Source of the DNA: Moraxella nasicaprae
Lineage (GTDB): Bacteria > Pseudomonadota > Gammaproteobacteria > Pseudomonadales > Moraxellaceae
DNA: 32,000 nucleotides
Direction: 5' to 3'
Assembly: GCF_025643275.1 (NCBI RefSeq)
Contig: NZ_CP089977.1
Location: forward strand, 30,001-62,000
Shown here piece after piece: positions 19,899-24,185 of this stretch (position 1 is the first letter of the stretch; each line of letters opens with the position of its first letter). A program made the translations under genes and the position numbers. The notes beneath the pieces are model-generated. The model saw only the letters and a program-made list of their open reading frames with translations, did not search any database and had not been told where the DNA came from.

Positions 19899-20774
19899 AT
19901 GAACACGACCAACTTGGTAACTTTTGTTGCCGTGATGCAAACAGGCAGTATTTCAGGTGCTGCTGAAAAACTCTATATCACCCAACCTGCTGTCAGTAAA
20001 CGCATCAAAAATCTTGAAGATGAATTTGGGGCAACTTTATTTGATACCGTTGGTCGTAGCATCATTCCCACGGCTGCTGCTCATGAGCTTTTGCCTTTTG
20101 TGCGACGATGGCTCGATGATTATGAAACTTGCAAGGCAAATTTACAGCATTCCAAAGAAGTCGCATCAGGGCGATTGGTCATTGGCACCAGCCATCATAT
20201 CGGCTTGCACCATCTTGCTCCTGTATTAAAACGCTTTATCCAAATGCACCCTGCTGTATCATTGGAGGTGCGTTTTGTGGATTCCGAAGAGGCTCATAAG
20301 GCGGTGCTTGAAGGCGAAATTTCATTGGCGTTTTTAACTCTGCCACCAACCTACGACCGAAGATTAAACTATCATACACTATGGTCTGACCCGCTATATT
20401 TTGTGACAGGAACGCTGAGTCCGCTCGCCCAAAAAACCAATGTCAGCTTATTGCAGCTGGCTCATCACCCTGCGATTTTGCCAGCAGCAAATACCTTTAC
20501 CAGTCAGATTACTTTGGCAGAATTTGCCAAGCATAATCTACGCCCATACGCCACGATGAGCACCAATCCTTTGGAATCAATTCGCATGCTAGTATCAGTC
20601 GGCTTGGGCTGGTCGGTCTTGCCAGAAACACTCATCAATCAAGATTTGGTCAAAATCGATATGGCAGAACAAATCGAACTACAACGACATTTGGGCGTGG
20701 TTACCAATCCAAATTTGACCCATTCTGCCAGCATGAAAGCCTTGCTTGCCATTTTATCCATTGATGTGGATTAG
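19899..20774 (+). CDS. LysR family transcriptional regulator
   Basis: N-terminal HTH (LVTFVAVMQTGSISGAAEKLYITQPAVSKRIKNLEDEFGATLF) plus a LysR substrate-binding domain. Confidence 0.9.
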   Translation: MNTTNLVTFVAVMQTGSISGAAEKLYITQPAVSKRIKNLEDEFGATLFDTVGRSIIPTAAAHELLPFVRRWLDDYETCKANLQHSKEVASGRLVIGTSHHIGLHHLAPVLKRFIQMHPAVSLEVRFVDSEEAHKAVLEGEISLAFLTLPPTYDRRLNYHTLWSDPLYFVTGTLSPLAQKTNVSLLQLAHHPAILPAANTFTSQITLAEFAKHNLRPYATMSTNPLESIRMLVSVGLGWSVLPETLINQDLVKIDMAEQIELQRHLGVVTNPNLTHSASMKALLAILSIDVD

Positions 20775-20894: not shown

Positions 20895-20926
20895 AATAAA
20901 AAACCCTTTCGAATTCGAAAGGGTTT
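20895..20926 (-). terminator. rho-independent terminator ending the four-gene cassette
   Basis: Perfect 26-bp palindrome aaaccctttcgaattcgaaagggttt (20901-20926), followed on the minus strand by a T-run. It lies 5 nt after the stop of the 137-aa ORF. Confidence 0.85.
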
Positions 20927-20930
20927 GGGG

Positions 20931-21344
20931 TTAAACTTTAAAGTTATCTAATAAATTGGGTATGCTTTCATAATATTTTTTAGCTATTTTAACATCATAA
21001 TCGCTTATATTTTTCTCTAATTCATAATCAGATTGACATCGCCTACTATGAAAGTCTTTAAACTGCAAAGCTAATTTTTGAAAATTTTTATTATTGGTTT
21101 GTTCTGCATAATCCACCAATACTAAATATAGCTGATTATGAACACCTGTCTTAAAAACGCCATCGCTATTTTTACCAATAGCGTACTGTGGCAAATTTTG
21201 CTCAATGTATTGTTTGACAATATGAAAAATCACATAATAACTTCTACTAATAAAAGCTCGTTTATCTGATTCACCAGAGCTACTATCAAGCAACGCAAAT
21301 AAGCCATCAAGGGACAACTTTAAATCCTGAATATCAACAGCCAT
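20931..21344 (-). CDS. HEPN-like four-helix protein
   Basis: The layout matches classical HEPN domains: helix 1 SRSYYVIFHIVKQYIEQ (compare sR.YYA.fHa..a.L), central GVHNQLYLVLVDY, and late FKDFHSRRCQSDYE (compare l...R..aDY). The start ATG overlaps the upstream stop (TAATG). Confidence 0.6.
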   Translation of the reverse strand: MAVDIQDLKLSLDGLFALLDSSSGESDKRAFISRSYYVIFHIVKQYIEQNLPQYAIGKNSDGVFKTGVHNQLYLVLVDYAEQTNNKNFQKLALQFKDFHSRRCQSDYELEKNISDYDVKIAKKYYESIPNLLDNFKV

Positions 21345-22129
21345 TATTGCAATCCCTTTGGCATAAATCTTATGACAATTTTTTGACAGTCATTGAAATC
21401 AAATTTATCCAACATCACATCTAAAAAATCATCATTTAACTGCAAACATTCATCAATGCTAACATTGTTTAGATAAAAGCAATATTCAAGCTGCTTGCCC
21501 ATCTCGGTTTCAATCATAGAAAGCCTATGACTAATATTACCACAATAGCGAGAATATATAAAGCAAAAGACCTCTTGATTGAATTTGATAAATAAGTCTA
21601 AATCAAAGTTTAGTTCATTTAACATTACATGATGATGATTGATACGAGTTACGCTCTTTGCAAATGATTGGCTTAAATCATTGAAATGATGCTCACTACC
21701 TTTAAATTTGGCGAGAATATCATTCAAACCATCTGCATCAAGCAAGCACATTTTATTTGTTTCAATCAAATCAAAAGCAGAAATATCTGCTGGATTATGG
21801 GCAATTAGCCCTTCTACAATCTTTAGGCTTTCGCTAAAATCGCCATTTTTATTTAACAAAAGTGCATAATTATATATTGCGATTTCATCTGATGATTGCG
21901 ATGCATATTTAGCATTTTTGACTGCATTTTTCAAATCGCCTTGCAAAATATTGACAAAGGCTCTTAATAGATAACCCTCTGTAACAATGCCTTGCTTAAT
22001 TAGGCTGTCTGCATCGTTAAGCCATCTTTTATATTTTAAGCCGTATGTAATATCATCCGTCAAGCCTTGATAGCTGGATAAAAATTTGTACGCATCTTGA
22101 GCGGTGGATTGTGGGATTTTTGCAACCAT
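21344..22129 (-). CDS. hypothetical protein, helical-repeat (TPR-like) N-terminal half and unknown C-terminal half
   Basis: 261-aa ORF with an ATG start. The N-terminal half shows repeated amphipathic helix pairs (LLRAFVNILQGDLKNAVKNAKYA / AIYNYALLLNKNGDFSESLKIVEGLIAHNP). The C-terminal half has a His cluster (RINHHHV) and several Cys. No NTase (GS..G/D.D) motif. Confidence 0.6.
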   Translation of the reverse strand: MVAKIPQSTAQDAYKFLSSYQGLTDDITYGLKYKRWLNDADSLIKQGIVTEGYLLRAFVNILQGDLKNAVKNAKYASQSSDEIAIYNYALLLNKNGDFSESLKIVEGLIAHNPADISAFDLIETNKMCLLDADGLNDILAKFKGSEHHFNDLSQSFAKSVTRINHHHVMLNELNFDLDLFIKFNQEVFCFIYSRYCGNISHRLSMIETEMGKQLEYCFYLNNVSIDECLQLNDDFLDVMLDKFDFNDCQKIVIRFMPKGLQ

Positions 22130-22149: not shown

Positions 22150-22458
22150 TCAAATAAAGCGTCTATCTGTTTGCATTTTTTGCTTAACTTCATCTTGATA
22201 AGGCTGTAATAAATCATTGTCTGCCCGAAGTAAAACATAAACTTGCATAAAAACATCATCAGGCAAATCACTAAAATCTATCGTATTATGGTCATAATAC
22301 AATGTATGATAGTCATCAAGCCAAAATAATTCTGCCGCCATTGTTTTTTCAAACAAGATTTTCAAACGATTAAACAGCTCCTTACCAGCCTGATTATCAA
22401 GGCTGACAGTTAGGCTTTTGTCAAAATCTTTACTTTGATAAATTATCAGTAAAGTCAT
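22150..22458 (-). CDS. small acidic protein, candidate immunity/antitoxin for the upstream MuF-CT protein
   Basis: 102-aa ORF. Its ATG lies 29 nt inside the 3' end of the 322-aa ORF. D/E-rich. No family recognised. Confidence 0.55.
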
Positions 22459-23398
22459 CGTTTTTATCCGTAATTAACAGAATTTTTTGCTGTTTATGTT
22501 TGGGCAATAATAACACATAATCAATAATTTTTACAAACAACTCTTTATCCATTTTACGCAAATCCATTGGTACAATATCTGATTTTAGCAAATGCTCATC
22601 AATGGTTTTTGTTAGCTCGTCCCAAAAACCGTCAATTTTGGCTTGTTTTTTAGGATTTTTCATTGAAATGCGTTTTAATGCCATATCTGCCATATATTTT
22701 GCTTGAACTTCATCAATAGCAAACATTAAATCCATTGTTTGCCATTCTTTTACAGGCAAATCATTGTCTTTTTTAGCAAAGTCTGGCGGATTGCCTGTTG
22801 GATTTTGTTTATGGTAACGGTCATCATAACGCACCAAGTAAATGCCAAAATACTGCTGTAAAAGGTCGGCAAGTTCTGCCTCGGCAGGTCTTGGCTGCTT
22901 TGGCTTTTCGCCTTGCTTGGTTGGTTCAACTTGCAAGCGTTTGACTTCACTGACTCGTGGTTTTAAGTTGCCAACATTAATTGTTTGATAGCTCGGCTTT
23001 TTAAACACCTCCCCAAACACCACAGGCTCTAACTTTGCCATCTCATTTAGGGTTAGGGGTTCAAAGTTTTTATCCAGTTGTAGGGCTTTAAACTTTGCCT
23101 GTGTGATTTTGCCACTTCTAAACAGTTCAGCTCGTTTTACCCCCAACGCCATATTTTGTGTATGTTCATCTTGTAGGGCTAACCATTCATAGTAGGTCAT
23201 GTTCTCAACCTGACCGTGTTGGCTGGCTCGGTACTTAGGCGGTGTGTAGTCTTTGGTGATGATTTCTACCGTGCTACGACAATTGAAATGATATGGAGGG
23301 TAACTTGCCTTATCAATGGGCATAAATTGACCGTCTAGGTGTCTGATAAGCAGGCTTGTGCAACATTGACAGATGGCATAAACATGGTAAAATACCAA
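22430..23398 (-). CDS. 5'-truncated phage MuF/SPP1-gp7-type head morphogenesis protein fused to an unrecognised C-terminal domain (candidate orphan polymorphic toxin)
   Basis: [25 protein letters not shown] is the terminal signature of the MuF/gp7 domain (ldG..f.....PP.H.NCRC). It is followed by the usual [15 protein letters not shown]...PLTLNEM tail, a K/P/E-rich linker and about 170 aa of unknown fold. The rest of the MuF domain that normally precedes this signature is missing. The track start is TTG. The first ATG is at 23323 (MPIDK...). There is an in-frame stop at 23474-23476. Confidence 0.65.
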
Positions 23399-23561: not shown

Positions 23562-24185
23562 ATGATTTTGGTTATCGACAATTATTGTAGTTTTACTTAT
23601 AACATTGTTCAGTATTTTGGAGAACTTAAACAAGACATCACGGTTTGGAGAAACAACGAAACCACCCTTGATGAGATTATCGCTCTCAATCCAAAAGCCA
23701 TTATATTAGGGCCTGGTCCATGTAGCCCAAGCGAGGCTGGTGTCACTTTGGAAATTTTACACAAACTTTCTGACCGCATTCCGATTTTGGGTGTTTGCTT
23801 AGGGCATCAAGCGATTGGGCAAGCATTTGGCGGTGATGTGGTGCGTGCTGGCGAAGTGATGCATGGCAGATTGTCCAAAATGCATCATACTGATGTGGGG
23901 ATTTTTCACGGATTACCACAGGGTTTTGAGGCGACTCGCTATCATTCGCTTGTGATTGATAAAAACACCCTGCCAGACTGCTTGGAAATGACCGCTTGGA
24001 CACAAAATCCTGATGGTAGCATTCAAGAAATCATGGGTGTACGCCACAAAACCTTGATGGTGGAAGGCGTTCAATTCCACCCAGAATCTATTTTAAGCGA
24101 ACATGGCTATCGTCTATTTAATAACTTTTTGGAGCGTGCAGGTCTGCTTGTCTTAGACCATCACAACCTACCGCAAGTTGCCTAA
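23562..24185 (+). CDS. trpG: anthranilate synthase component II / aminodeoxychorismate synthase glutamine amidotransferase
   Basis: [21 protein letters not shown]...GPGPCSP...GVCLGHQ...FHPES are class-I GATase motifs. Confidence 0.9.

Follow-up and report, generated by a model that had tools for sequence, protein, structure and literature searches.

The window examined here is a 32,000-nucleotide (nt) stretch of the Moraxella nasicaprae genome (contig NZ_CP089977.1, positions 30,001 to 62,000). Its minus strand carries two overlapping open reading frames (ORFs), the first encoding a protein of 261 amino acids (aa) with tetratricopeptide (TPR)-like repeats, and the second a 137-aa protein of the HEPN superfamily. 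This pair of genes, its homologues in other genomes and its possible function are the subject of this report. The two genes and the signals at their junction and end are as follows.

21344..22129, minus strand: 261-aa partner, a predicted antitoxin or sensor with TPR-like repeats and a C-terminal domain (from the ORF and a family hidden Markov model, HMM)
20931..21344, minus strand: 137-aa HEPN-superfamily protein of the AF0298-like HEPN-T type, a predicted RNase effector or toxin (from the ORF, profile searches, a structural model and Foldseek)
21342..21346, minus strand: TAATG, the stop/start overlap of the two genes (from the sequence)
20901..20926, minus strand: strong intrinsic terminator, consisting of an 11-bp stem and then a T run, 4 nt past the HEPN stop codon

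The genes meet at AAAGGGATTGCAATAATGGCT, where the TAA stop codon and the ATG start codon have one base in common, and a Shine-Dalgarno-like AAGGGA lies 9 nt upstream; the pair shows translational coupling in the window. The initial annotation, made from the sequence alone, had described overlapping ORFs of 261 and 137 aa at 20931-22129, and both the coordinates and the lengths are exact; the peptides that it quoted (SRSYYVIFH, GVHNQLYLVLVDY, HSRRCQSDYE, RINHHHV and CFIYSRYCGNISH) are all found in the ORFs. Both ORFs are identical to annotated M. nasicaprae proteins, labelled “hypothetical protein” and “tetratricopeptide repeat protein” by NCBI, and the UniRef label of the 137-aa protein is “HEPN domain-containing protein”. 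Their length in DNA with a guanine-plus-cytosine (GC) content of ∼32%, together with the existence of homologues elsewhere, indicates that these are not chance ORFs.

The HEPN protein and its conserved residues

Taken alone, the 137-aa protein matches no Pfam, NCBIfam or PADLOC model and falls below every Pfam HEPN threshold; its sole library match is phrog_5176, a family of unassigned function (7e-19). An exhaustive search with phmmer, covering 1.84 billion cluster representatives, returned 35 relatives of this protein, and a profile of 34 family members matches solved HEPN structures, namely 9xbd (2e-11), 9xbc (4e-10) and Archaeoglobus AF0298 (2hsb; 1e-5). Weak matches to the Pfam HEPN family PF05168, all below threshold, are found for 13 of the 34 members (best E 2.5e-4). 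The AlphaFold2 (AF2) model of the 137-aa protein, built on the family alignment, is an all-alpha bundle of five helices (predicted local distance difference test score, pLDDT, 93.6; predicted TM-score 0.87). The top Foldseek matches of this model in the PDB are AF0298 (2hsb), SO_3166/HepT toxins, YutE, an AMPylated HEPN toxin, the HEPN domain of sacsin, and Csm6 (entries 2hsb, 5yep, 6m6u, 7bxo, 1ylm, 8xdj, 3o10 and 6tug), with probabilities of ∼0.9-1.0 and TM-scores of 0.5-0.65 for HEPN proteins. The initial annotation had called the protein HEPN-like from its helix pattern, and profile and structure searches both place it within that superfamily; it is a HEPN protein of the AF0298 type. One phmmer match, P0012 (936 aa), covers no more of the HEPN query than its N-terminal 45 residues, which it matches in seven stretches; this is perhaps a repeat protein, or else a spurious match due to low complexity.

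Three stretches of the protein contain the residues that are retained across the family.

21222..21272, minus strand: helix-2 motif E25-x3-R29-x4-R34-x-Y36-Y37-x3-H41 (ESDKRAFISRSYYVIFH), from conservation in 56 lineages
21138..21146, minus strand: G67-V-H69 at the start of helix 3, containing the proposed alternative catalytic His (from its invariance and the AF0298/9xbd alignment)
21024..21041, minus strand: R102-C-Q-S-D106-Y107 at the end of helix 4, a variant of the HEPN R-x4-6-H motif (from its invariance and comparison with 2hsb and 9xbd)

The mean identity of the HEPN protein across the 56 lineages is 31%, and E25, R29, R34, Y36, Y37, H69, R102, D106 and Y107 are invariant in all 56, with H41 present in 55. 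R102-x3-D106-Y107 aligns with LREESDY of AF0298 and LRNRSDY of 9xbd, and G67-x-H69 with KTH of AF0298 and SSH of 9xbd. R29 and R34 are specific to this clade, being invariant here and unconserved in AF0298. That nine polar residues are invariant at 31% mean identity argues for an enzyme, which from the sequence is most plausibly an RNase.

The initial annotation had found no evident R-x4-6-H in the expected late helix, and had therefore regarded RNase activity as uncertain. The first point stands, since the helix has R102-C-Q-S-D106-Y107 in its place; the doubt drawn from it does not. In AF0298-like HEPN-T proteins, Arg is kept, Asp replaces His, and a second strongly conserved His, from the connection between helices 2 and 3, could form an alternative active site (Anantharaman et al. 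2013, PMC3710099). As the 137-aa protein has this documented variant, with H69 as the alternative His, the missing R-x4-6-H is no argument against catalysis.

The closest solved relatives, 9xbd and 9xbc, differ from each other only by a Y to F substitution in the R-N-R-S-D-Y motif, so that the tyrosine equivalent to Y107 has evidently been probed by others. The literature on 9xbd, on UPF0332 and on the Vibrio phage described below yielded nothing relevant.

The partner family and its linkage to the HEPN gene

The 261-aa protein has two recognizable parts.

21797..22024, minus strand: TPR-like helical repeats, residues ∼36-111 (from the family profile, Pfam TPR matches in homologues, and helix pairs in the AF2 model)
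21359..21694, minus strand: C-terminal alpha-alpha-beta-beta-alpha-beta domain, residues 146-257, a putative HEPN-binding module (from AF2 secondary structure and 13 partners)

As a single sequence, the partner gives weak Pfam TPR matches (E 0.02-0.08), and several of its homologues score above the Pfam TPR thresholds. The profile built from eight partners matches consensus TPR proteins with per-chain E-values of 1e-18 to 1e-5, which are summed over repeats, single stretches being weak, and matches the TPRs of O-GlcNAc transferase at ∼1e-7 to 1e-5; the TPR coverage corresponds to profile positions 45-117. The AF2 model has helix pairs at 49-62/66-77 and 82-94/98-111. The TPR-like character ascribed to the N-terminal half by the initial annotation is therefore borne out by the family profile, which matches both groups of TPR proteins.

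The C-terminal domain has a secondary-structure pattern that is kept in 13 partners, with a recurrent region of the form h-x-h-x-Y/F-L ... D-D-x-L-x-L-N-x-E-F-L-D. Its profile has no match in Pfam or among PDB sequences beyond designed helical repeats, and a fold search with the partner model returned TPR proteins and otherwise insignificant partial matches (C-terminal domains of YiiP/MamM, and Ohr). A natural short form is found on a metagenome contig (L006, 4193..5039), where the HEPN gene, of 144 aa, is overlapped by a 140-aa partner that is for the most part C-terminal alpha/beta domain.

Small HEPN proteins commonly have a minimal nucleotidyltransferase (MNT) as a partner, and the initial annotation had stated that the partner here is of another kind. 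Motif and Pfam searches agree: neither the nucleotidyltransferase motif (GS-x9-13-D-x-D or G[SG]...DxD) nor a Pfam nucleotidyltransferase match is found in the window partner or in sets of 8 and 32 homologues, and no other MNT-like ORF lies near the pair. We also considered the C-terminal half as a degenerate MNT, and rejected this on its alpha-alpha-beta-beta-alpha-beta order, the absence of G[SG]...DxD, and the lack of any conserved acidic residue. The Cys and His residues of the C-terminal half (RINHHHV and others), which the initial annotation had singled out as a feature, proved to be lineage-specific; they are unconserved in homologues and so do not constitute a metal-binding motif, and a Cys/His metal site was rejected. 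In the partner family as a whole (56 lineages), mean identity is 18%, no residue exceeds ∼80% conservation, and no polar residue is conserved. With this low conservation and no nucleotidyltransferase motif, the partner reads, from its sequence, as a fast-evolving, non-enzymatic binding protein and not as an MNT.

A word-index search had found only two proteins for the 137-aa query and nothing other than itself for the 261-aa query, which would have made this an orphan pair; that reading was overturned by the phmmer search and by scans of IMG/VR, and was rejected. The first relative of the pair to be found is in Vibrio phage PQ189350 (23691-24885), in which the HEPN homologue has 138 aa, is 34% identical to the HEPN protein of the window, and is overlapped by an ORF of 262 aa. 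Scans of IMG/VR and GTDB with close relatives revealed the same arrangement in Moraxella prophages and in three other Moraxella genomes, and metagenome contigs have upstream partners of 257, 285 and 298 aa, in addition to truncated ones. An IMG/VR pattern scan starting from a more distant clade identified at least 233 contigs, a lower bound because one degenerate peptide pattern was used. The best 80 of these 233 loci (49 clusters at 80% identity) were analysed, using mechanical ORF calling and with the proviso that IMG/VR contigs may include host flanks.

In 79 of the 80 loci, the HEPN gene is preceded on the same strand by an ORF of 223-298 aa (most commonly 256-262 aa), which in most of these 79 overlaps the HEPN start by 1-20 nt. 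One HMM family takes in 78 of the 79 upstream partners, and an HMM made from the viral partners alone matches the window 261-aa protein at 2.6e-14. Beyond these, the partner HMM picks out just three ORFs in the whole set of 80 loci, each of them an additional partner gene. The pairwise divergences of HEPN and partner are correlated (Mantel r = 0.82, a value reached by none of 2000 permutations), which means that the two proteins have been inherited together without partner swapping. Homologues of both genes stand together almost throughout, in the viral loci (79 of 80) as well as in several metagenome contigs and three genomes of Moraxella; the pairing pointed out in the initial annotation is an obligatory co-occurrence, in a fixed gene order.

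Some loci depart from the single intact pair. Two IMG/VR prophages have a second, divergent and complete copy 4-5 kb downstream of the first (L053, 9226..10409; L099, 10321..11468). In a Moraxella-type prophage (L004, 5226..6400) both genes are frameshifted, leaving partner fragments of 121 and 146 aa and a HEPN gene that has lost its start; this is an example of module decay. A metagenome-assembled genome of the Acidobacteriota (L020, 6706..8324) has a distant HEPN homologue (A2 profile, 7e-19) after overlapping ORFs of 241 and 163 aa, neither of which matches the partner HMM or any Pfam family. The end of the 163-aa protein has the order beta-beta-alpha-beta, which resembles the partner C-terminal domain by eye only.

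Phage settings of the pair and the island in the window

Homologous pairs are found at several kinds of junction in phage genomes. In the P2-like Vibrio phage PQ189350 the pair lies between the portal gene gpQ (plus an ogr-like gene) and replication gene A; the gpA-gpQ locus of P2 is a defence hotspot, occupied by old, tin and other anti-phage systems (Rousset et al. 2022, PMC9122126). Among the 49 IMG/VR lineages, a baseplate hub protein (phrog_196) is one of the upstream neighbours in 16, and a baseplate wedge subunit (phrog_120) one of the downstream neighbours in 12; in other lineages it comes after the tape-measure gene or ahead of distal or minor tail genes. In Moraxella prophages it is inserted between the lambda-like tail genes L and K. 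Copies also occur alone: in Moraxella sp. Pampa (L018) the pair stands by itself between dusA and glmM, and the L006 pair is chromosomal, in non-phage surroundings, with a peptidase M16 gene on one side and an RraA-like gene on the other. From the variety of junctions, the stand-alone copies and the duplicate copies, the distribution is that of a moron, and the pair is a mobile accessory cassette, unlike a structural phage gene.

One prophage of an uncultured Moraxella sp. also has a HigB/HigA module (L017, 9208..9833, minus strand), made up of a HigB-like toxin (PF05015, 3.5e-18) and an HTH_3 antitoxin; it is inserted behind tail gene K, at the next junction downstream from that of the TPR-HEPN pair. 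Toxin-antitoxin morons seem to accumulate in the tail module of these Moraxella prophages.

In the M. nasicaprae window, the pair belongs to a group of four closely packed minus-strand ORFs (322, 102, 261 and 137 aa) located between genes for a LysR-type regulator and TrpG. The features of this island outside the pair are the following.

19899..20774, plus strand: LysR-type regulator gene, one flank of the island
22150..22458, minus strand: 102-aa ORF, context only, its role assigned from position alone
22430..23398, minus strand: truncated MuF/SPP1-gp7 head-morphogenesis gene fused to a CdiA_C_tRNase toxin domain, 322 aa (phrog_241, 8e-36; PF18664, 4.8e-9)
23562..24185, plus strand: trpG, the other flank of the island

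The island is 2.6 kb long and has a GC content of 0.32-0.34 vs 0.44-0.49 in the flanking leuC, LysR, trpG and trpD genes, and was therefore acquired horizontally. The 322-aa ORF is the 3′ remnant of a MuF gene; it keeps the end of the MuF domain (“PPYHFNCRS”), and its N-terminal part is ∼50% identical to MuF-like proteins of Moraxella phages Mcat5/6/8. This polymorphic-toxin C-terminus is an orphan, stranded between the pair and trpG. The 102-aa ORF shares 29 nt with the end of the toxin remnant. Searches of Pfam, NCBIfam, PADLOC and PHROGs assigned it to no family, and homologous pair loci lack it; judged by position only, it probably encodes the protein for immunity to the upstream tRNase toxin remnant and lies outside the pair. 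The 261-aa ORF starts 20 nt downstream of it. Given the MuF/tRNase-toxin remnant adjoining the pair, the island is a decayed prophage fragment in which two conflict modules have been retained. The phage-cargo location suggested by the initial annotation thus applies to the homologous pairs, which are phage cargo and include one at the P2 gpA-gpQ hotspot; the window island itself contains no intact prophage.

Proposed function and relation to known systems

The initial annotation had found the pair compatible with a new toxin-antitoxin or abortive-infection system, and this interpretation is supported: we consider it fairly probable that the two genes are a module of the toxin-antitoxin-like or abortive-infection type, with a TPR protein in the place of the MNT. 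The HEPN protein would most likely act as a metal-independent RNase, dimeric like other HEPN nucleases, with an active site made of R102 and the alternative His H69, helped by E25, D106 and Y107; R29 and R34, which are particular to the family, could serve to bind RNA. The partner gene comes first and is translationally coupled to the HEPN gene, and its product would block the HEPN protein by binding to it directly, probably with the C-terminal alpha/beta domain; as there is no MNT partner, neutralization by AMPylation is not expected. The fast-evolving TPR half would sense a trigger (an infecting phage might supply it in the form of a protein) or be lost by degradation, and the freed RNase would then halt translation, leading to abortive infection, superinfection exclusion or post-segregational killing. 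A more specific proposal, which we put forward tentatively, is that the pair could be the founding example of a widespread but so far undescribed prophage-borne immune system, in which a TPR sensor directly gates an AF0298-type HEPN RNase without nucleotidyl transfer.

Several observations weigh against a toxin-antitoxin-like or abortive-infection function. In the Foldseek search the HEPN model has only weak E-values (0.03-0.5), which small helical bundles usually do. The canonical R-x4-6-H is absent from the 137-aa protein, which has no His 5-7 residues past R102, and catalysis by AF0298-type HEPN proteins has been proposed, a demonstration not having been found in the literature. The partner model is of low confidence (mean pLDDT 66; ∼57-84 over residues 146-257) because it was built on a 3-sequence alignment, to which a word-index search with the partner profile had contributed only two relatives. 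The partner family has no match of the helix-turn-helix, ribbon-helix-helix or AbrB type, and without a recognizable DNA-binding domain, there is no sign of the autoregulation typical of type II antitoxins. In the window no clear promoter belongs to the pair itself, and promoter-like matches are no commoner than in shuffled sequence. Correlated divergence is a sign of co-inheritance and no proof of physical interaction, and neither protein has a match at E <= 1 in PADLOC-DB v2.

Three other functions were weighed. The pair might serve the phage’s own biology, the HEPN protein being a non-toxic RNA- or nucleotide-binding factor, or a narrowly specific processing factor, and the TPR protein its adaptor, for instance in regulating late (tail) gene expression or lysogeny. 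Most pairs are within tail or baseplate clusters, on the same strand as the structural genes, which would suit such a role, as would the absence of canonical R-x4-6-H; non-catalytic or regulatory HEPN domains such as MtlR have been discussed (PMC3710099). However, the pair also occurs without surrounding phage genes (L018 and L006) and in non-tail slots (P2 gpA-gpQ), it is carried by some related prophages and missing from others, at junctions that vary, which is moron behaviour, and the nine invariant polar residues point to catalysis. We regard a role in phage biology as rather unlikely.

Variable accessory slots of prophages can hold anti-defence as well as defence genes, and the carriage of the pair by hundreds of prophages in such slots would also fit a counter-defence (anti-immunity) role in temperate phages, in which, for instance, the TPR protein would direct an RNase to destroy an RNA or signal of the host's defence. 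Against this, stand-alone chromosomal copies are kept outside prophages, and the layout of a fast-evolving, non-enzymatic first gene overlapping a conserved nuclease gene is typical of antitoxin and toxin. One instance, moreover, is in the P2 hotspot, where tested cargo proved defensive, and counter-defence appears quite improbable.

Polymorphic toxin loci often carry arrays of immunity genes, and the pair in the window lies directly downstream, on the same strand, of the MuF-tRNase remnant and the 102-aa gene (gaps of 20 nt or less), but that it consists of accessory or orphan immunity genes of this MuF-CdiA-type locus is extremely improbable: this reading was rejected because no MuF-toxin lies beside the pair in the loci read gene by gene (L001-L007, L010, L017 and L018) and because, in the 49 viral lineages, MuF/head-morphogenesis is not one of the 25 PHROG families that are commonest at the two positions nearest to the pair on each side, and the conserved enzyme-like residues of the HEPN protein are unlike those of an immunity protein.

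The preferred toxin-antitoxin-like reading can be set against known systems. The nearest in organization is HEPN-MNT (HepT/MntA), a type VII toxin-antitoxin system. Both consist of two adjacent co-directional genes, of which the second encodes a small (∼130-aa) stand-alone HEPN protein and the first is in the antitoxin position, with close spacing (a 1-nt overlap in the window); the HEPN fold matches SO_3166/HepT structures, and both systems are widely mobile. They differ in that the first gene here encodes a TPR plus alpha/beta protein and no minimal nucleotidyltransferase, and in the motif, which is R-x3-D-Y here vs R-x4-H. The closest relatives by sequence profile are AF0298-like HEPN-T (UPF0332; 2hsb, 1e-5) and 9xbd/9xbc (2e-11 for 9xbd), which have in common with the window protein the SR-x-YY-x3-[HY] helix, a conserved upstream His, and R-x3-D-Y instead of R-x4-6-H. 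The clade containing AF0298 is listed as stand-alone or MNT-fused/associated HEPN proteins (PMC3710099), whereas the clade described here is always linked to the TPR partner. As a conserved co-directional two-gene unit that is co-inherited and mobile (with the stand-alone insertions L018 and L006), the pair also resembles type II-like toxin-antitoxin systems.

Other HEPN families are known to be paired with repeat proteins, namely AbiU2 with a Sel1-repeat gene, and LA2681, which is fused to or in an operon with TPR (PMC3710099). These have the same combination of HEPN nuclease and alpha-solenoid repeat protein in a conflict-system context, but they are different HEPN families with canonical R-x4-6-H, and no sequence relationship to either window protein was detected. 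DefensePredictor DS-28 of E. coli is a validated two-gene anti-phage system comprising a HEPN family nuclease and a hypothetical protein. It resembles the window pair in having a small HEPN protein and a partner of ∼250 aa (252 aa) of unassigned function, and differs in having the HEPN gene first, a canonical RNSVAH motif, and a partner that by eye is without a TPR-like pattern; identity of the pair with DS-28 was rejected on reading both sequences by eye, without alignment. The pair is not among the DefensePredictor HEPN systems inspected. The pairing of HEPN with repeat proteins is thus known from other HEPN families, and the novelty here lies in the partner of a HEPN module that occurs widely.

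HEPN nucleases are among the commonest effectors of prokaryotic conflict systems, and their small stand-alone forms are understood almost only with the MNT partner, through AMPylation. The present pair is a strictly conserved alternative partnership, joining a TPR/alpha-beta protein to an AF0298-type HEPN on at least 233 IMG/VR contigs and in several genera, and it is missing from Pfam, PADLOC and PHROG annotations. To a specialist such a pair is plausible rather than shocking, and it is a clean, compact and testable candidate. If the reading favoured here is true, the pair would provide a first functional and mechanistic handle on the R-x3-D-Y/alternative-His HEPN active site. If toxic or defensive, it would be a new family of prophage-encoded immunity, a compact two-protein system (∼400 aa) in which to study sensor-gated RNase activation, and a test of the catalytic capacity of the non-canonical HEPN active site; if neither, phage tail modules would contain a conserved HEPN pair that is not toxic, of which there are few examples.

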